A stretch of DNA of 64,000 nt from Pirellulales bacterium (GCA_019745975.1 JAIESQ010000011.1:8433-72432); one strand, 5' to 3'; positions 4,025-61,081 are shown, counted from the first letter of the stretch. Numbers and translations: made by a program. The notes: generated from the letters alone by a model not told the origin.

Positions 4025-5908
4025 CTAATCCCACCACCAGCGATCGCGATCGAGCGCGGCAGGCGCGGCTTGCTGGCGCGCGTTGTCGAGCCTTGCGCCG
4101 CCATCGGCCAGCGCGTCCTCGCTCAAGTGCGGCCAAGGATCGGCATGAATGCCGCCGCTGACGCCGGCCACGTAACGACGCGCGCCGGCCCGCTGGCTGG
4201 CGGCCACGGTTTCGACCGCGCGCGGCACCTCGGCCGATTCGGGGAGATAGCCGCCATCGATCCCGAACCAGGCGCGGTGCCAGCCGGCGCGCTCATCGAG
4301 CCGCTGCGAAGTCACCAGCGCTCCGACGAGTTCCAGCGCGAAGAGGTTCTCGAGCTCGGCATACACCGGATACCTGGCCGCCAACTCGGCGTAGTGCTCG
4401 TTGAAGTTGGCCGCGAAGCGCTGGTTCAATTCATCGGCGGCGCCGGTCGGCACGCGGCGCCCCGTGGCGTTGAGAAACTCGTTTTCGCCTTGCAATCGCA
4501 CGGCGATGCCGCGCAAGGCGAACGCTTCGCGGGCGCCATCGCTTTCGACCGCTTCGCAGGCGAGCGTGAACCACCAGCGCAGCACATCGAGGGCTGGCAC
4601 GGCGGATGCATCCTCGCGGGCGACAATCTCCAGGTAGCTCGGCACGCCGGCCACGCCCTGCTCGATTCCCATGCCGATCAGCTTCATGTGATAGTCGGCG
4701 GCGACGAGCGTGCGGGCCGCGGTCGTGCGGCCATCGATGCCGAAGACCTCGATCGTCTGCAGGCCGACCTTGCGGCGCAACTGTTCGAGCTGCTGCTTGC
4801 GCCCCGCCGGCTTGCCTTGGCCTGCGGCGCCGTCGAGATACGCCTTGGCGGCGGCTAGCCCTTCAGCGGATGGATTGATCGTGCAGCCGAGGATGTCGCG
4901 CGAGCGCTCCTGATTGTGACGCCAGAGGACGACGAGATCGTCGAGCCGCAGACAGGGTCGGCCGGTCGTTTCGCTCACGGCGCGACCTTCGGCGTCCGTG
5001 GTCCACCCGGCGGCTGGGCCGGCAATCACCAGATCGCGCGAATCCGGATAGAGGAGCACGTAGTCGATGCGCTCCAGCCCGGCCAGCGCGCGCTGGGTAT
5101 CGCTCGCGCCGCGCCCCAGCGCGTGCCCCAGTTGCAGCGCGCGTTCGAGACGCGGCAGCGACACCTTGCGCAGCTTCGACGCGCGACGAACGTCTTGCGG
5201 CCCCGCGACCACGGCCGCGTCGCGCCGCAGGGCGACGAGATCGGCGCGGGCAGGCGACTTAGTTGCCCGACGCAGCACTCCCTCGGCGTCGACGAACACG
5301 CCATTGCGATACGATTCGATGGCGCCTTGCCCGCCGACTTCTTCCCAGGTGGTCGGGGCGATGGTCGACGTAATTAGATCAATTAGGCTGGTGAAGTCGG
5401 CTTGCACGCCGCCCCCTTGCGCGCCGGGAGGCGCGGCGGGCGCCGCGCCTGGGGCCGCGAGTCCACCAGGAACACCGACCGGCGCGCCGAACGGCACTCG
5501 GGCGTTCTGGCCTGGGAAGGCGCCGATTTGCGCCAAAACCGTCGAGCGATCGAGGTCGTCGTCGAGCAGAGCGACCGTTTCGATTGCCGCATTGCGCGCG
5601 CCGGCGTGGGCTTGCGCGGCGGCCAATTGCGCGAAGCGGGCGTTGCGGTCCGCGGCTGGAGACTTTTCGATGAGCTGCCGCGCCAGGCCGAATTCGCCGG
5701 AAGCGAGGTACTCAGCGAACTTGTCGCCTGGCGCATCGGCCCGCGGCGTGTCATCGCCGGCAAGCGCCACCGCAGGCAACGCGAGCGCAAACAGAACGAG
5801 AAGCAGTTGCAAAATCTGGATTGGGTGCCACTGCTGGCTTGCCCAGCAGTGCAGCGCTCGATACAGCACTGCTAGACGAGCTAGCAGTGGCATACGACGC
5901 CGGTTCAT
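4025..5908 (-). CDS. DUF1598 domain secreted protein
   Basis: Signal peptide; ADFTSLIDLITSTIAPTTW, ADYHMKLIGMG and RWWF motifs typical of planctomycete DUF1598; start at ATG 5908 inferred. Confidence 0.8.
   Translation of the reverse strand: MNRRRMPLLARLAVLYRALHCWASQQWHPIQILQLLLVLFALALPAVALAGDDTPRADAPGDKFAEYLASGEFGLARQLIEKSPAADRNARFAQLAAAQAHAGARNAAIETVALLDDDLDRSTVLAQIGAFPGQNARVPFGAPVGVPGGLAAPGAAPAAPPGAQGGGVQADFTSLIDLITSTIAPTTWEEVGGQGAIESYRNGVFVDAEGVLRRATKSPARADLVALRRDAAVVAGPQDVRRASKLRKVSLPRLERALQLGHALGRGASDTQRALAGLERIDYVLLYPDSRDLVIAGPAAGWTTDAEGRAVSETTGRPCLRLDDLVVLWRHNQERSRDILGCTINPSAEGLAAAKAYLDGAAGQGKPAGRKQQLEQLRRKVGLQTIEVFGIDGRTTAARTLVAADYHMKLIGMGIEQGVAGVPSYLEIVAREDASAVPALDVLRWWFTLACEAVESDGAREAFALRGIAVRLQGENEFLNATGRRVPTGAADELNQRFAANFNEHYAELAARYPVYAELENLFALELVGALVTSQRLDERAGWHRAWFGIDGGYLPESAEVPRAVETVAASQRAGARRYVAGVSGGIHADPWPHLSEDALADGGARLDNARQQAAPAALDRDRWWWD
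5822..5895. repeat. REP family B doublet (REPIN-like) inside the 5' end of the DUF1598 gene
   Basis: GGGTGCCACTGCTGGCTTGCCCAGCAGTGC followed by GCACTGCTAGACGAGCTAGCAGTGGCATAC. Confidence 0.85.
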
Positions 5909-6230
5909 CGCCGGTTCTGAAACGGCCTCAAGCAATTGCGAGATCGCGATGCACCAGCGGCCCGATTGCGGCCGCGAGTTGGTCACCCGATTCGATCGCT
6001 GCGCGCAGCCGGCATCCGCTCGAGAGCGTGCCATGGGAGATCTCCTCGTTCCGGTGTTCCCTGGGCGCGGCTTATCAAAGTCAGCGATTCGGTCCGGCAT
6101 CGCGGAGGCCCGCTTCCGCGATGCCGGCACAGCAACCGACCTAAGGCCAACGCGCCCGTCGCTAATCGTCGCACTAGCGGCTAGGATGCGTCAAGCAAAT
6201 TGCCGGAAATCCGCCCGACGAGCGACCGTG

Positions 6231-50963: not shown

Positions 50964-53108
50964 TTGGTAGACCAGTTGTCTGCAGCTCGACGATGGACCG
51001 ATAGCCGCTGGCTTGCGAAAGTCGCCGCGGCCTTGGCAACCGTGCTGGTCGTCGGGGTTCTGGCTGTGGTTTATGGCCTGCTCCGAGGCTTTTCTCCCCT
51101 GGACGTTCTCGTCTGGAATCCTTCGTCCGGTCGAGACATGGTCATCGTGATGACGGTCATCCTGTCGGCGCCGTTGTGGTTTTTTGCTCCGGGCGAAGGA
51201 CGAAAGTCGTGTTCCATCGGGAATACGCTCCGCTGGATTTTGGTTTTGGCCGCGGTCAATTCGACTGCGCTGATTGCGATCCGCCTCGTCAAGCAACCGC
51301 TCGTAAATCCGTTCATTACCGCTAGTCGAGATACGCTGGTAGTCTCGGACTGGATGTGGTGGATCGTGCCCGCGAGTCAGGTTTGCGGTTTGCTGCTGCT
51401 GGCGCTCTACACGCTGGGAGTCGGCCGAATCTTCACGGGGATCGCGGTTGGACGCGCGCTGTTATTTATCGTTCTGCTGGCGACGTGCTTCGACGTCGTT
51501 CCCTTGATCGCGAACGGCAAGCTCGAGGGGGTTGCCGAATTGTTGCTGATATTCGGCTTGGTTGCTGCCGGCTTGCGTAGCCGGTGGTTGCTGTCGCGTT
51601 TCGAAACTCGGCCGAAGCCATGGCTGGTGGCGATCGCACTGGCGATCTTGATCGGTTTGCCAGCCGGCTACTGGGCGGTTCAGGTGCTTGGTCGTACGAC
51701 ACCCTCGCCAGTTGCTGCACGTCCGAACATCCTGCTGATCACGCTCGATACGGTTCGCAAGCAGAACCTGAGCTTGTATGGGTATTCGAGGCAAACCACG
51801 CCGCAGCTCGAGCGGTTCGCCAAGCGCGGAGTTGTCTACACGAATGCCATCGCGCCATCGTCGTGGACCTTGCCGACGCATGCGAGCATCTTTACCAGCT
51901 TGTTGCCGCTGGAGCACGGCGCCGAACAGGTCGGGCTGGGACTGCAACCGCATGCGCGGACGCTGGCCGAATCGCTGCGGGAGAGCGGTTACGCGACTGC
52001 GGGATTTGTCGCTAACGACATGTGCGGCAAGCACACCGGTCTTGCGCAAGGATTCCAATACTATGATGAACTGAAGCCGTGGTGGTGCGGCTCCATCGTC
52101 ACGGCTGCAACGGCGCAGTTCCTCGGAGGGGTGCCACGCCGAACGGCCGCGGACATCAATCGCTCGTTCCTGAAATGGCTTGACCGCCAACGAGGCCAAC
52201 CGTTCTTTGCGTTTCTCAACTATTACGATGCGCACGGCATATACGAGGTTCCCGATCCCAGCTTTGACCGGTTTTCGACGGCAACACGCCGTGAGCGCCG
52301 CAAGCTAAAAACGAAATGGTCGATCGCGGACGTGCCGTTCCGACCGGACGATCCCAGCGAGCGGCAATACGCCATCGACAGCTACGACGGCGCCATCGCG
52401 TATCTCGATGACCAGCTAGGTCGATTGTTCGACGCCCTGCAGCGCCAAGGCCTGTTGGACAACACGATCGTTGTCGTTACCAACGATCACGGCGAACACT
52501 TCGGCGAAAATGGGAAATGGGAACACAGCGACAGCTTGTATCGACAATTGATTGACGCGCCGCTAATTATCGTTTATCCGCCGAAGATCGCGGCAGACGC
52601 GGTAGTCGAGCAGCCCGTCACGCTGACGCAGATTCCGGCGACGCTCGTTGAGCTGGTGGGCCTGGAAAAAGAGACCGCCTTTCGCGGTGCATCGCTCCCG
52701 ACGGCAGCGCCGCTTGCCGGCGGCGCGGTGGCAACCGTCCAACTCGACTTGATCTTTTCGGAGACCTGCCCGAACCAGGAGGACCGATCTGAAGACCGGC
52801 TGTGTTCCATTGTCGCCAATGGCTGGCATTACATTCGTCGCTGCAGCGATGGCGACGAAGAGCTCTACGACTATCGAGCAGATCCTCTCGAGTCGCACAA
52901 CCTGGCCGACGAGCCAAGGTTTCAAGACAACCTGACGTCGCTGCGCGGACTGCTGCTGCAAAACTATCCGGGGCGAGGGTCCGACCCGACGACCTCCGCG
53001 CAGGTGGTGGCGCCACGACAACACGTACCTGCATGGGTTGCTTGCCGCTGTGGGTGCTGCCGGCCACCAGGGGCGCTGGGGCTGTTTCTCTATCGGCTCG
53101 GCCCGTAG
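50964..53108 (+). CDS. Membrane-anchored sulfatase/alkaline-phosphatase superfamily protein
   Basis: About 7 N-terminal TM helices; PNILLITLDT, WTLPTHAS, DHGE, H.DSLY; start uncertain. Confidence 0.82.
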   Translation: MVDQLSAARRWTDSRWLAKVAAALATVLVVGVLAVVYGLLRGFSPLDVLVWNPSSGRDMVIVMTVILSAPLWFFAPGEGRKSCSIGNTLRWILVLAAVNSTALIAIRLVKQPLVNPFITASRDTLVVSDWMWWIVPASQVCGLLLLALYTLGVGRIFTGIAVGRALLFIVLLATCFDVVPLIANGKLEGVAELLLIFGLVAAGLRSRWLLSRFETRPKPWLVAIALAILIGLPAGYWAVQVLGRTTPSPVAARPNILLITLDTVRKQNLSLYGYSRQTTPQLERFAKRGVVYTNAIAPSSWTLPTHASIFTSLLPLEHGAEQVGLGLQPHARTLAESLRESGYATAGFVANDMCGKHTGLAQGFQYYDELKPWWCGSIVTAATAQFLGGVPRRTAADINRSFLKWLDRQRGQPFFAFLNYYDAHGIYEVPDPSFDRFSTATRRERRKLKTKWSIADVPFRPDDPSERQYAIDSYDGAIAYLDDQLGRLFDALQRQGLLDNTIVVVTNDHGEHFGENGKWEHSDSLYRQLIDAPLIIVYPPKIAADAVVEQPVTLTQIPATLVELVGLEKETAFRGASLPTAAPLAGGAVATVQLDLIFSETCPNQEDRSEDRLCSIVANGWHYIRRCSDGDEELYDYRADPLESHNLADEPRFQDNLTSLRGLLLQNYPGRGSDPTTSAQVVAPRQHVPAWVACRCGCCRPPGALGLFLYRLGP

Positions 53109-53507: not shown

Positions 53508-54938
53508 CTACAGCCGGTAGTACACGTCCATCACCTGCTTGAGCATGTCGTGGACGATCGAGCGGTCGGGGATCGCGGCCGCCATGCCGTAGATCGGGGC
53601 CATGCCCCCTTCGATGTTCGGCGTGTCGCGCACGAAGGCCACTGCTTCGCCCAGGTCTTGGACAAATCGCTCGGCCACGCCCGGCTGAGTTTGCCGCAAC
53701 GTGGGGCTGACGTGGATGCCGGCCGGATGCTGCAAGCCGGTCAGGGCCCAGCCGCGGGCCGACATCTGATCGAGCACCTGGTACATGTCGAGCGACGCCG
53801 AACCGATCGCGAAGGGCCCCAGCGAGTTGCCCAAGAGGTGCAGCTCGGGGATGCCGGCGATGCCTTGCTTCATCGCGTCGACGGCCGCCAGAATGCGGCG
53901 CGTCGCTTCGAGGTAGCCTTGCTCGCCGATCGAGACCAGGGCCGCCCAGCAGGCCGCGCTCAAGCCGCCAGGGCGGCTGCCGGAGAAGGTCGGCGAATAG
54001 TACAAGCCGCCAGGCCAGTCCGACGTGGTGAAGTACTGGAAGTGCCGCAGCTCCTGGCCGCGGTACAGCACGACTGAGGTGCCCTTGGGGGCGTAACCGT
54101 ACTTGTGGGTGTCGCAAGACATCGAAGTGACACCCGGCACGCGGAAGTCGAACGGCGGCACGTCGCGCCCCAGCTTTTCGGCCCAGGGCAAGAAGTACCC
54201 ACCCAGGCAGCCGTCGATGTGCAGCAAGAGCCCGTGCTGTTGGGCCAATTCGCCGAGCTGGTCGATGGGGTCGATCGTGCCGTAGGGGAAGTTCACGGCC
54301 GAACCGACCAGCGCGATTGTGTTGGGGCCGATCGCGTCGGCCACGGCATTCACATCGACGCGCAGCGCGTCGTCGAGCGGCACGATCTTGAGTCCCATGC
54401 GGAAGTACTGCGCCGCTTTGTGGAACGCCGCGTGCGCCGAGATGGGTACCACGATCTCACCATCGCGGATGCCACGCTTGGCCTCGGCCCAGTCGCGGGC
54501 CGTCTTCATCGCCAACAAAATGCTCTCTGACCCGCCCGAGGTGACCGAGCCACAGATGCCCTCGGGCGTGCCGAAGGGCGCGGTGGTGCGATCGGCCCCC
54601 AGCATGTTGGCCGTCATGGCGACGATCTCGGCCTCGAACTTAGCGGCGCTGGGCCAAAGATCGGAGTGCAACTGATTGGCCTGCGATTGCAGGGCGTAGG
54701 CTTCGGTGACGAACTTCACGTGTTCGTCATCGCCGTGATAGACCGAGCCGGAGGCGTAACCCTGCTTCCAGCGTCCCTCTTCGATGGCGCGCAGCTCGGC
54801 CAGCTCGGCGAGCACTTCGGCGCGCGGGCGACCGGCCGCGGGCAGCTTGCGATTGGCCGGGAAGCGCTCGCGGTACGGGTGCATCATCTGATCGATGGGG
54901 GCCAACAGGCCCAGCTCTTCTTCAACTTCGTGCGACAC
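53508..54938 (-). CDS. Sphingosine-1-phosphate lyase-like PLP-dependent aldolase (group II decarboxylase fold)
   Basis: SGSVYHG, TSGGSESI, HIDGCLGG, SCDTHKYGYAPKG, W.GGLY.SPT..GSRPG. Confidence 0.85.
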   Translation of the reverse strand: MSHEVEEELGLLAPIDQMMHPYRERFPANRKLPAAGRPRAEVLAELAELRAIEEGRWKQGYASGSVYHGDDEHVKFVTEAYALQSQANQLHSDLWPSAAKFEAEIVAMTANMLGADRTTAPFGTPEGICGSVTSGGSESILLAMKTARDWAEAKRGIRDGEIVVPISAHAAFHKAAQYFRMGLKIVPLDDALRVDVNAVADAIGPNTIALVGSAVNFPYGTIDPIDQLGELAQQHGLLLHIDGCLGGYFLPWAEKLGRDVPPFDFRVPGVTSMSCDTHKYGYAPKGTSVVLYRGQELRHFQYFTTSDWPGGLYYSPTFSGSRPGGLSAACWAALVSIGEQGYLEATRRILAAVDAMKQGIAGIPELHLLGNSLGPFAIGSASLDMYQVLDQMSARGWALTGLQHPAGIHVSPTLRQTQPGVAERFVQDLGEAVAFVRDTPNIEGGMAPIYGMAAAIPDRSIVHDMLKQVMDVYYRL

Positions 54939-54984
54939 GTGAGGTTCCTCGTCGTGGTCTGGATGCGATGTATTTGGTGGAATT

Positions 54985-56583
54985 CTAGCGATGGCCGTCG
55001 ACTGGCCTGTTGTTCATCTGACGGAACAGTTTGCGGTTGGCGCGGTAGGCCGCCAGAAAGTTCCGGTAGGACTGCTCGTAAATTGCGCGATTCGTGGCAC
55101 TTGGCAGGTAGGTGTTGGCAAACTCCACGCGGCGCGGGATCTCTTCGACCGGCAGTTTCTCGAGTGCCACCAGGGCCGCCAGCGCCGCGCCGCGGGCGAT
55201 GGCGACCTGCGGATCGGCTACTTGGCGGATCGGGCAGTCGAATACGTCGGCCAGTATCTGGCACCACACCGGGCTGCGCGCGCCACCACCGATGAAGTTC
55301 AGCGAGGCGAACCGTCGGCCGCAAAACGCTTGCACGCTATCGCGCAACCAACGCAGATTGTAGGCCACGCCTTCGAAGATCGCACGCGCAGCCTGGGCGC
55401 GCCCCGTGGGAAGCGACTGATTCAGAAATCCGCCGCGCAGGGCGCTGTCGCCTGAAGGGGGTCCGCCACCGTTCAGCCAAGGAAGGAACAACAGCCCTTC
55501 GCTGCCGGCGGGCACCGTGGCGGCCAGGCGCTCGAGCCGCTCGAAGGCGTCGGCCGGCCGCTGGCCGATTGCGATATCGTCTTCGGGGTAGAGCCAATTG
55601 TCGAGAAACACTTCGACGCACTTGCCCGCAGGGCCGAGCTCGGCCATCACCATGTTGCGCCCTGGCAAGGCCGAGGGCATGGTCGCCAGGTAACGCGACA
55701 GATCGGTCTTGCGGAATGGCACAAAGCAGGTCAGCCAGCTCGACGTGCCCACGCAGACGTGCGCGTCGAAGTCGTCGACCGTGCCGGCGCCGAGCGCGGC
55801 CGCCTGGCTATCCCCCAGGCTGGCGACCACTTTGACTTGCGGGCTCAGTCCCCAGGCGGTGGCCACCTCGGACAGAAGTGTGCCGACCGTAGCGCCAGCC
55901 GGCACGAGATCGGGTAGCTTCTCGCGCGGGATGCCCGACCAGGCCAACAGCCGCGGCGCGTAATCGATGTTGGGATTGTGACGGTTGTTCGTCAGCAGAT
56001 ACGGATAGATCGAAGCATGCGAAGCGGCAAAGCGGCCTGTGAGTCGCAGGTTGAGATAGTCGGCCGGCTCGAGGAACTTATGCGTCTGGAGATAGATGTC
56101 GGGCCGCTCGTGCTTGAGGAAAAGCATGTGGGCCAGCGCGTCGGCACCCGAGTGTGTCGGAGCGCCACCGGTGTACCACATCCAGCCCAGCAGTCGCGTC
56201 AGTCCGTAGTCTTGAATCTTGATCAGCCCCCGAGTGATGTCTCGCGTGTAGGGGGCGCCGCGGCGATCGGTCCAGTGAACGGCGCGCGACAGGGCCCGAC
56301 CATCCGCGGCGACTGGCACGGTGACCGACCACTGGCCCGTACAAGCGATGGCGACGACCCGGTCGAGCGGCACCGGGCGCGGGTCGAGAATCTGTCGCGC
56401 GAGCCGATCGAAGCTGCCCCACCACGCGTCGGGATCTTGCTCGGCGCCACCGTCGGGCAGATAGTGCGTGGCAATGCGAGCGGAGGCGTGCGCCACGACC
56501 CGGCCCGAGTCGGCCACGAGGGCGACCTTGGGGCCACCGCTCCCCAGGTCGATCACCAAAACGTACGAGCTTTCGCGCGTCAT
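54985..56583 (-). CDS. FGGY-family carbohydrate kinase (xylulokinase-like)
   Basis: IDLGSGG.K, W.D.R, GDSQAA, GTSSW, LPWLNG, EGVA, GGGA.S. Confidence 0.9.
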   Translation of the reverse strand: MTRESSYVLVIDLGSGGPKVALVADSGRVVAHASARIATHYLPDGGAEQDPDAWWGSFDRLARQILDPRPVPLDRVVAIACTGQWSVTVPVAADGRALSRAVHWTDRRGAPYTRDITRGLIKIQDYGLTRLLGWMWYTGGAPTHSGADALAHMLFLKHERPDIYLQTHKFLEPADYLNLRLTGRFAASHASIYPYLLTNNRHNPNIDYAPRLLAWSGIPREKLPDLVPAGATVGTLLSEVATAWGLSPQVKVVASLGDSQAAALGAGTVDDFDAHVCVGTSSWLTCFVPFRKTDLSRYLATMPSALPGRNMVMAELGPAGKCVEVFLDNWLYPEDDIAIGQRPADAFERLERLAATVPAGSEGLLFLPWLNGGGPPSGDSALRGGFLNQSLPTGRAQAARAIFEGVAYNLRWLRDSVQAFCGRRFASLNFIGGGARSPVWCQILADVFDCPIRQVADPQVAIARGAALAALVALEKLPVEEIPRRVEFANTYLPSATNRAIYEQSYRNFLAAYRANRKLFRQMNNRPVDGHR

Positions 56584-56721
56584 GCACCGGAGCGTAGTTC
56601 CGCTGGGCAGAGTCGGCAACCCGACAGTCGGCCGCTGGCTGGAATAACTTGCCGCTTGTCAGGTTGGCACCGCGCGCGAGAATAACGGCGGCGCGCGTGG
56701 CATTGGGGTCAGGAAATCTTG

Positions 56722-57426
56722 ATGGGCGAAGCTCCCAAAGCGGTGGTGCTGGTAAGCGGTGGCCTCGATTCGGCTACGGCGCTGGCAATCGCGCAGGCCG
56801 AGGGTTTCGCGACCTACGCGATCACGTTTCGCTACGGGCAGCGGCACGCCATCGAGGTGGCGGCCGCCCGGCGTGTCGCCGAGCGGCAAGGCGCGGCTGG
56901 GCACGCAGTGGTCGATATCGACTTACGGCAATTTGGCGGTTCGGCCCTGACCGCCGACCTGGCGGTGCCCAAGGGACGCGACGCCGCGAGCATGGCCGAG
57001 GGAATCCCGATCACCTATGTGCCGGCGCGGAATACCATCTTTCTTTCCTTCGCGCTGGCCTGGGCCGAAGTGCTGGGGTCGACTGACGTTTTTCTGGGGG
57101 TCAACGCGATCGACTACAGCGGCTACCCCGATTGCCGACCCGAGTACCTGGCCGCCTATGAGCGGATGGCGAACCTTGCCACGCGGGCGGGGGTGGAACA
57201 AGGTGCGCGGCTCAAGATTCACGCGCCGCTAGTGTCGCTCACGAAAGCCGCGATCATTCGCCGCGGCGTCGAATTGGGCGTCGACTACTCGTTAACGACC
57301 AGTTGCTACGACCCCGCGCCAGAGAGCGGCGCGGCGTGCGGCCAGTGCGACTCGTGCCAACTGCGATTGCGCGGCTTTGCCGAGGCCGGCCTCGTCGATC
57401 CGGCGCGTTACATCTCAGGCGCTTGA
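56722..57426 (+). CDS. queC: 7-cyano-7-deazaguanine synthase
   Basis: SGGLDS, YGQRH, TYVPARN, YPDCR, CY...CGQCDSC. Confidence 0.96.
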
Positions 57427-60410: not shown

Positions 60411-60677
60411 ATGAGCACCATCGACGACTCGCAAAGCGCCTTTCATCGGGGGACCGCGCCCCTATTCGCGCTGCTTTCGGCCGAGCAGACGCGGCAGCTC
60501 GCCGAGTTGCAGGGTGACCCCGCGTTGGCCGATCGTCTGGCGGAGTTGGCCGAAAAAGCCACCGAAGGGGAGCTGTCCGAAACCGATCGCGCCGAGTACG
60601 AAGCCTATATCGAGGCCAATAATCTGCTCACGGTGCTGCAAGCTGAGGCGAGATTTCGCCTGACGCAAGGCGGATAA
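60411..60677 (+). CDS. Small acidic helical protein, putative partner/antitoxin of the HNH nuclease
   Basis: 88 aa; RL.EL.EK..EG.LS..DRAEY...LQAEAR; TAATG overlap with the next gene. Confidence 0.75.
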   Translation: MSTIDDSQSAFHRGTAPLFALLSAEQTRQLAELQGDPALADRLAELAEKATEGELSETDRAEYEAYIEANNLLTVLQAEARFRLTQGG

Positions 60678-61081
60678 TGTCGCTCGACCGGGCCACCCGC
60701 CGCCAGGTGCGCCAGCGAGCAGCGGATCAGTGCGAGTATTGTCAGCGACGGCAGAGCGATTCGCTGCTCATTCCTTTGCAAGTCGAACACGTTTTGCCGC
60801 GCAAGCACGGCGGTGGCGATGAAATCGACAATCTGGCCTTGGCGTGCGCGGAGTGCAACTTGCACAAGGGAAGCGACCTGTCAGGGATCGATCCCGAATC
60901 AAGTGAGGTCACTCGCCTGTTCGATCCGCGACAAGACAACTGGAACGAGCATTTCAATTGGCACGGCTTGAGAATCGTGGGGTTGACGGCGATCGGTCGC
61001 ACGACAGTTCGCGTCTTGCAGATGAACGCGACGGCACGACTCAAGGTTCGCTTGGTGACGCGCCGCTCAAAACCGGATTAG
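60677..61081 (+). CDS. HNH endonuclease
   Basis: CEYC...VEHV.P...GG.D..DNLALAC.ECNLHK; LF.PR...W.EHF; GRTT. Confidence 0.92.
   Translation: MSLDRATRRQVRQRAADQCEYCQRRQSDSLLIPLQVEHVLPRKHGGGDEIDNLALACAECNLHKGSDLSGIDPESSEVTRLFDPRQDNWNEHFNWHGLRIVGLTAIGRTTVRVLQMNATARLKVRLVTRRSKPD

Follow-up and report, generated by a model that had tools for sequence, protein, structure and literature searches.

Sphingolipids are made by eukaryotes and by some bacteria (PMC6148460). In the eukaryotic degradation of long-chain bases (LCBs), a sphingosine kinase (SPHK1/2 or Lcb4/5) acts first and a sphingosine-1-phosphate (S1P) lyase (SGPL1 or Dpl1) follows, and the canonical kinases belong to the DAGK family (PMC6148460). 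Among bacteria, the S1P lyase of Symbiobacterium thermophilum (StSPL; PDB 3MAD, 3MAF, and 3MAU; EC 4.1.2.27) degrades S1P in vitro and in vivo (PMC3148216). The lyases of the intracellular pathogens Legionella and Burkholderia, organisms that do not synthesize sphingolipids, have been read as host-directed virulence factors, and the role of such enzymes in bacteria without sphingolipids is posed as a question in a review of the family (PMC6148460). Here we analyze two neighboring genes, encoding a kinase of the FGGY family and a pyridoxal 5′-phosphate (PLP) enzyme of the S1P-lyase type, in a 64,000-nucleotide stretch of DNA from a Pirellulales bacterium (GCA_019745975.1 JAIESQ010000011.1:8433-72432); we refer to this whole stretch as the window. 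Based on the sequence comparisons described below, we propose, with a probability of roughly 0.6, that the pair constitutes a kinase-then-lyase module for 2-amino-1,3-diol compounds, with sphingoid bases as the most likely substrates.

Each of the described systems resembles this locus in part. The window lyase is a full-length homolog of StSPL, likewise soluble and without an N-terminal membrane anchor, and it keeps all of the PLP, substrate-phosphate, and substrate-entry residues, while its N-terminus is about 39 residues shorter. With the eukaryotic route, the locus shares a homologous lyase and the proposed order of reactions, whereas its kinase has the FGGY fold and no DAGK_cat domain, and both enzymes are soluble and encoded in a predicted operon. 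The pathogen enzymes are bacterial, more distant members of the same lyase family (E values to the window lyase of 6.6e-55 for Legionella and 5.9e-125 for Burkholderia); the clade described here, in contrast, occurs in free-living environmental bacteria and is defined by its linked kinase. A further parallel is found in sugar catabolism. In the fuculokinase and rhamnulokinase routes, an FGGY kinase phosphorylates C1 and a class II aldolase cuts the C2–C3 bond, leaving a phosphorylated small fragment and an aldehyde. The proposed module would share the C1 phosphorylation and the subsequent C2–C3 cut, but with an amine rather than a keto group at C2, a PLP-dependent cleaving enzyme, and phosphoethanolamine in place of dihydroxyacetone phosphate. 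Pairs of an amino-alcohol kinase and a PLP enzyme follow a parallel logic. What would be new here is a known pathway logic carried out with a non-homologous kinase: in the full-text literature that we searched, which did not extend to subscription-only papers, we found no work on bacterial sphingoid-base phosphorylation that involves an FGGY kinase, nor any that ties such a kinase to an S1P lyase.

An S1P-lyase-type PLP enzyme

General family models place the PLP enzyme only broadly. Its Pfam match is the generic Pyridoxal_deC domain, and its best NCBIfam model is MfnA (TIGR03812). Together with the true MfnA genes that follow a related kinase in six loci of the sediment clade described below, these matches would fit an alternative in which the enzyme is an MfnA- or GAD-like amino-acid decarboxylase and the kinase has nothing to do with it. 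However, the MfnA score of 192.6 bits lies under the cut-off of 299.4, in contrast to the 466.3 bits reached by a true MfnA from locus L129. When the lyase was compared with the PDB using phmmer, the first match was StSPL itself (3mad, E 1e-179, query residues 11–475), and the Burkholderia, human (4q6r, 5.1e-114), yeast (3mc6, 1.2e-107), and Legionella S1P lyases were also recovered. Aspergillus-type S1P-lyase entries likewise ranked ahead of the decarboxylases, the first of which appeared only at E 7e-21, and the leading S1P-lyase matches are about 100–160 orders of magnitude better than that of MfnA (1e-179 versus 7e-21). Identity to StSPL is approximately 60–65%, as counted by hand on the printed alignment.

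The active site was compared residue by residue. Fourteen residues involved in PLP binding, substrate-phosphate binding, and substrate entry are tabulated for five characterized S1P lyases in PMC6148460, and all 14 are found in the window lyase. The PLP-site set K279, D242, H169, C244, G136, S137, H278, and S321 corresponds to StSPL K311, D274, H201, C276, G168, T169, H310, and S353, respectively. The substrate-phosphate set Y67, N88, H91, S65, and K285 corresponds to StSPL Y105, N126, H129, A103, and K317, and the entry residue Y450 to Tyr482. In an alignment of 88 lyase orthologs, 11 of the 14 residues were invariant, including the equivalent of Tyr482, and the three varying positions (in StSPL numbering, A/S/T at 103, H/Q at 129, and T/S at 169) spanned the same range as the characterized enzymes. 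The retention of the substrate-phosphate residues Y105, N126, H129, and K317 (StSPL numbering) is a further argument against a decarboxylase.

Gene fusions provided information on the product of the reaction. A search for longer relatives of the lyase returned 22 proteins, and in 13 clusters (P0124-P0136, approximately 1037 aa, one cluster with 88 members) a tungsten-type aldehyde:ferredoxin oxidoreductase (AOR) is fused to the N-terminus of the lyase; where named, these clusters are labeled Desulfobacterales or Deltaproteobacteria. An intact gene of this kind is present in genome G478 (L201/L216, G478:C27:32580-35690; 84% identity over positions 1-1037), with no kinase within 10 kb upstream and with the contig ending 125 bp downstream. 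A separate AOR gene adjoins the lyase at locus L047. Since an AOR partner implies that the lyase product is an aldehyde, and not an amine, the fusions are good evidence that the members of this clade release an aldehyde and act as lyases rather than decarboxylases. Judged by its sequence, the PLP enzyme is a member of the S1P-lyase family and not an amino-acid decarboxylase, and we regard the decarboxylase alternative as very improbable.

A distinct group of FGGY kinases

The kinase belongs to the FGGY family (FGGY_N, 138 bits; FGGY_C, 83.3 bits) and gave no Pfam hit to DAGK_cat (PF00781), which separates it from the canonical sphingosine and LCB kinases. Its nearest characterized relative by sequence is XylB, and the relationship is distant: the score against the XylB model (TIGR01312) is 239.9 bits, below the cut-off of 380.25, and the nearest solved structure, the E. 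coli xylulose kinase 2itm, is matched only at E 9.8e-44. The GlpK model (TIGR01311) is further away still (94.9 bits versus a cut-off of 590.35). True XylB and GlpK enzymes are encoded on other contigs of the same genome (572 and 715.5 bits, respectively), so a kinase specific for xylulose is not what the sequence points to. Public sources name the window kinase and its relatives “xylulokinase” or “FGGY-family carbohydrate kinase”, in at least 120 clusters of which many bear the former name. The xylulokinase label on these proteins is probably wrong, whichever substrate they use.

Five specificity-determining positions of the FGGY family are given on GlpK as R83, E84, Y135, D245, and F270 (PMC3245297). 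We aligned 74 lyase-linked kinases with the genome’s own GlpK and XylB and mapped four of the five positions, the fifth, equivalent to Tyr135, not being reliably alignable. The E. coli GlpK numbering was placed on the genome’s own GlpK on the basis of residue type and known motifs. The resulting pocket signature of the subfamily is W85 (74/74), S86 (63/74), D258 (74/74), and W283 (65/74), where GlpK has R, E, D, and F and the genome’s XylB has M, H, D, and I. In addition, 71 of the 74 sequences share a clade-specific extra acidic residue, Asp148, which could bind the ammonium group of the substrate. The machinery of catalysis is kept, with the catalytic Asp being the D258 already listed and the ATPase Asp (D12) present in 73 of the 74 orthologs. 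We consider these kinases a new specificity group within the FGGY family.

To place this group, we built a FastTree phylogeny of complete open reading frames (ORFs) of 500–600 aa, rooted on GlpK by assumption. The 127 kinases of the subfamily all grouped in a single clade (support 0.925), which a long branch separates from XylB. Within it, the lyase-linked kinases made up basal grades, and a clade of sediment-metagenome kinases (support 0.996) was nested inside them; the link to the lyase therefore looks ancestral. The sediment clade comprises 49 sequences that are 37–42% identical to the window kinase (L124-L179, e.g., L127:2462-3862 and L166:5647-7506) and are without an StSPL-type lyase. 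Among the neighbors of these kinases are a divergent HemL-like class-III aminotransferase, in 34 loci, and an acyl-CoA-ligase-type gene, in 27. Genes for a Ras-type GTPase and for TYW2 that lie nearby suggest that the clade is probably archaeal.

Two further paralogs of the kinase subfamily were observed in a Desulfobacteria genome (L218, G478:C6:46500-64500). The cluster that holds them also encodes two MttB-family methyltransferases, a saccharopine-dehydrogenase-like protein, an FAD-linked oxidase, a GMC oxidoreductase fragment, and an MFS transporter, and looks like one for amine catabolism.

Linkage of the two genes across bacteria

We searched one-genome-per-species contigs with the lyase and, of 382 relatives, kept the best 80 loci. 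A kinase ortholog on the same strand (39–87% identity) accompanied the lyase in 68 of these, upstream in 66 and downstream in two. Three loci had too little upstream DNA to be assessed and nine were without the kinase, such that the pair is present in 68 of 77 assessable loci. Kinase and lyase matches were separated by a median of 83 bp, and the distance did not exceed 300 bp in 62 of the 66 loci with the kinase upstream. According to the record titles, the pair-bearing loci come from Planctomycetota, Hydrogenedentota, Myxococcales, Spirochaetota, Actinomycetota, Desulfobacterota, and Chloroflexota. The closer a kinase is in identity to the window kinase, the closer its partner lyase tends to be to the window lyase (Spearman 0.90, n = 68), as expected if the two are inherited or transferred together as a unit, with shared ancestry contributing to the correlation.

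A second collection was seeded with the kinase in metagenome contigs and yielded 79 loci, 29 of which had a kinase at least 43% identical to that of the window. An StSPL-type lyase was adjacent in 20 of the 29; five were cut off and four had no lyase (20 of 24 assessable), two of these four having less than 300 bp on the other side. From a Desulfobacteria sample, eight loci with a stand-alone lyase were fetched, and each had the kinase alongside. The adjacency of the two genes is far beyond chance. Neighborhood conservation across bacteria had been put forward as a check on the original prediction, and the pairing is indeed kept in at least seven phyla and in two independently seeded collections.

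No third gene shares this conservation. Clustering all ORFs of the 80 loci left only the lyase and the kinase as widely shared, and a Pfam census of the nearest flanks (121 ORFs) gave no family with more than eight members. The link also has a clear boundary. Seventeen further genomes, from an even sample of 301 across Planctomycetota, carry a lyase-family gene that is 32–45% identical to the window lyase. An FGGY kinase was found at none of the 18 distant-lyase loci, and there was no DAGK-type kinase among the 30 flanking proteins scanned there. The kinase link is thus a property of the StSPL-like lyase clade and not a matter of general synteny.

Individual loci showed additional features. 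In an Ardenticatenaceae locus (L076:2566-4202), the kinase and lyase lie 1.8 kb apart. A two-gene cassette seems to have been inserted between them, with a DUF4411 gene and an HTH/Peptidase_M78 (IrrE-like) gene on the opposite strand. The distant lyases (L085-L102) neighbor DUF819 membrane proteins, TetR regulators, phosphatidylserine decarboxylase, or Ser/Thr protein kinases, some of which have an FGE-sulfatase domain. Several of them reside in long open frames of up to 1743 aa, which suggests N-terminal extensions.

A putative two-step pathway

In the pathway that we propose, the FGGY kinase would use ATP to phosphorylate the C1 hydroxyl of a 2-amino-1,3-diol head group. The StSPL-type lyase would then bind the 1-phosphate, form an external aldimine on the C2 amine, and split the C2–C3 bond by retro-aldol cleavage, giving phosphoethanolamine and an aldehyde. 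Enzymes encoded elsewhere may in turn oxidize the aldehyde and activate it to acyl-CoA. As natural substrates, sphinganine, sphingosine, and phytosphingosine are the most likely; they would be released from scavenged ceramides by the genome’s neutral ceramidase. In this scheme, the kinase would do the job of a sphingosine kinase while being unrelated to the sphingosine kinases.

A functional coupling of the two genes is highly probable in light of the comparisons above. The original prediction held that the FGGY enzyme supplies the phosphorylated substrate of the lyase, and it named three findings that would speak against this: a kinase specific for xylulose, an amino-acid decarboxylase in place of the lyase, and a pairing that is not conserved. 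None of the three emerged, and the prediction is supported computationally.

Several observations nevertheless weigh against the proposal, some bearing on the coupling and some, considered in the next section, on the nature of the substrate. Regarding the former, nine of the 77 assessable lyase loci have no kinase. In seven of these (L044-L049 and L074), which have record titles of Anaerolineae type, a GntR/UTRA regulator takes the upstream position; L069 and L078 make up the remainder. Five of the genomes (Anaerolineales), namely four with the regulator and that of L069, are without a kinase ortholog genome-wide, the best FGGY hit being 30–33% identical, and the lyase can therefore work without the kinase. 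The derived sediment clade keeps the same pocket signature yet has no lyase partner. Apparent kinase–lyase fusions (P0139 and P0141) were not counted as Rosetta-stone evidence, as they are probably frameshift artifacts; in P0139, an Arg/Gly/Pro-rich stretch takes the place of the C-terminal part of the lyase ahead of the kinase, which looks like frameshift read-through. Lastly, the genome holds one DAGK-type lipid kinase on another contig, which could be the real sphingoid-base kinase; this family was matched in 13 of 14 control genomes.

The DAGK_cat gene, the lyase-bearing genomes without a kinase ortholog, and the loss of the lyase from a derived kinase clade would all suit a scenario in which the adjacency is conserved but the sugar kinase does not feed the lyase, with sphingoid phosphates coming from the DAGK-type kinase or being taken up ready-made. 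We consider this scenario quite improbable, since the short-gap, same-strand adjacency persists across the phyla listed above while all other neighbors vary, the divergence of the kinase follows that of the lyase, and the absence of the kinase from distant lyase homologs of the same phylum marks the link as specific to one clade.

Lipid or soluble substrates

For the kinase-then-lyase module, a lipid substrate is suggested in part by gene content. The window’s own genome encodes a full-length neutral ceramidase (PF04734, 524.7 bits; C-terminal domain, 106.2 bits), a family matched in none of the 14 control genomes. A search for ceramidase co-occurrence covered 50 of the 80 lyase-seeded genomes. 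The enzyme was found in 15 of 31 pair- or lyase-bearing Planctomycetota genomes versus 11 of the 301 genomes in the even phylum sample, and five of those 11 also had a lyase-family gene. A similar co-occurrence in spirochaetes (five of five pair-bearing genomes) was rejected as evidence: 80 of 121 sampled Leptospiria have a ceramidase, and the count says nothing because the enzyme is common there regardless of the pair. Another indication comes from two clusters (P0142 and P0143) in which a GPH-family/MFS_2 transporter is fused to the lyase. The best solved relatives of this transporter are the MFSD2A lysolipid symporters (E 2.6e-17, a partial match), followed by melibiose permease (1e-10), which hints at an amphipathic substrate without proving it.

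In the Pirellulales genome, the ceramidase gene is neighbored by a sulfatase gene and two genes for porin-like outer-membrane proteins. Approximately 4.5 kb from it lies a gene of the endonuclease/exonuclease/phosphatase family (L222:2630-3628), a superfamily that includes bacterial sphingomyelinases.

The link to the ceramidase is a weak one. Within Planctomycetota, the enzyme tracks essentially one Pirellulales lineage, and a tblastn search of 196 fetched loci with the genome’s own ceramidase gave no hit for a ceramidase adjacent to the pair. At E 1e-30, the searched pair-bearing genomes titled Hydrogenedentota, Actinomycetota, or Chloroflexota gave no match, and those of Myxococcales and Desulfatibacillaceae gave only partial matches near this value, such that most pair-bearing phyla are without a clear match. 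Moreover, the Anaerolineae regulators (GntR/UTRA, HutC-type; 12 loci) are typical of soluble-sugar or amino-sugar catabolism, and GPH-type/MFS transporters, seen in Chloroflexota loci and in the fusions, are typical of soluble-substrate operons. At L078, a separate MFS gene (4750-5970) directly precedes the lyase, behind a GntR gene. AOR enzymes, the fusion partners of the lyase, are best known for short and aromatic aldehydes. Finally, all nine characterized FGGY functions listed in PMC3245297 concern soluble sugars and polyols, and none of these nine concerns a lipid.

These observations, along with the solubility of both proteins, neither of which has a membrane anchor, and the setting of the Desulfobacteria kinase paralogs among MttB-type methyltransferases, a GMC oxidoreductase, and an MFS transporter, would accord with the same kinase–lyase logic applied to a small soluble amino-polyol or amino-alcohol. 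Serinol, a 2-amino-2-deoxy-alditol, or a short 2-amino-1,3-diol would then be converted to phosphoethanolamine and a short aldehyde. We judge such a substrate to be less likely. The lyase is close to StSPL, an S1P-cleaving enzyme whose substrate tunnel is long and hydrophobic, with Tyr482 as the substrate-entry residue (PMC6148460), and this tyrosine is invariant in the 88 orthologs. In the kinase, the polar residues by which GlpK binds distal hydroxyls, R83 and E84, give way to Trp and Ser, and a second Trp stands in for F270; the tryptophan in place of polar pocket residues points toward a lipid. The flanks of the pair are enriched for acyl-CoA-ligase-type rather than sugar-catabolic genes: the most frequent family among the nearest flanking ORFs was an acyl-CoA-ligase-type AMP-binding enzyme (8/121), two acyl-CoA dehydrogenases and one aldehyde dehydrogenase were also present, and no sugar isomerase, aldolase, or sugar-transporter family was among the 25 families listed in the census. 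The original prediction had offered a choice between a sphingoid base and an amino-sugar-alcohol; the evidence leans toward the lipid and does not settle that choice. Taken on its own, the identification of the substrate as a sphingoid LCB stands at about even odds on these sequence features.

Gene organization and surroundings

The coordinates, the 46-bp spacing, and the co-orientation first reported for the pair were correct, with both ORFs found at the expected positions on the minus strand and the kinase first (Table 1), and the four lyase motifs noted at the time (HIDGCLGG, DTHKYG, GGLY.SPT, and GSRPG) are all present in the translation. For the kinase, an alternative TTG start at 56619 is also open and would give a protein of 544 aa. 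A scan for terminator-like sites gave three hits, all on the plus strand, and none on the minus strand of the spacer, from which we infer that the two genes are co-transcribed. Upstream of the kinase, no promoter of the operon was identified in the divergent intergenic region, where the sole sigma-70-like hit (56656-56683, plus strand) faces queC. Bracketed by a divergent queC gene and a convergent sulfatase gene, the kinase and lyase form a self-contained two-gene unit.

Table 1 Features of the kinase–lyase locus and of the ceramidase locus in the same genome
Feature	Position	Strand	Basis and remarks
FGGY-family kinase, first (upstream) gene of the operon	54985-56583	-	ORF; ATG at 56583; stop codon begins at 54985; 532 aa
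S1P-lyase-type PLP enzyme, second gene	53508-54938	-	ORF; GTG start at 54938; 476 aa
Kinase–lyase spacer, 46 nt, minus strand	54939-54984		GAGGA Shine-Dalgarno-like (ribosome-binding-like) site, 7 nt ahead of the lyase GTG
Divergent intergenic region, kinase/queC	56584-56718	.	Presumed seat of the operon promoter
queC, divergent flank of the pair	56719-57426	+	Pfam scan
Sulfatase, convergent flank of the pair	50964-53108	+	Pfam scan
Neutral ceramidase, 713 aa (own genome)	L222:8148-10289 (L222 = G000:C183:15500-33500)		

The sulfatase that flanks the pair is unusually long (714 aa), and the approximately 250 residues before its sulfatase domain match no Pfam family. Elsewhere in the window, a stand-alone HNH endonuclease ORF (60677-61081, plus strand, 134 aa) abuts the 3′ end of a gene for a CusA/CzcA-type RND transporter; its domain resembles the IscB/Cas9d-type nucleases, but scores 47.8 bits against a cut-off of 175. 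Genes of the DUF1559/H-X9-DG type are also present in the window, in keeping with a planctomycete of Pirellulales-like type.

Implications

The fixation of a kinase gene beside the lyase in many phyla makes the question of what S1P lyases do in bacteria directly testable. A broader claim, that this FGGY subfamily is the missing bacterial sphingoid-base kinase and that, with the lyase and, in some lineages, the ceramidase, it makes up a complete sphingolipid-scavenging pathway in at least seven phyla, is one that the sequence comparisons allow us to put forward only tentatively, at a little less than even odds. If the kinase does act on sphingoid bases, it would supply the native function of the StSPL-type lyases, and the xylulokinase names in the records would be wrong. 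A sphingoid base would also be the first lipid substrate for the FGGY family, and sphingosine-kinase activity would have two separate origins, one in the eukaryotic DAGK-type enzymes and an independent one in a kinase family unrelated to them. The gene pair would then serve as a genetic marker for environmental sphingolipid turnover. If the substrate is instead a soluble amino-polyol, the pair would define a new catabolic route and extend the range of reactions of S1P-lyase-type enzymes.

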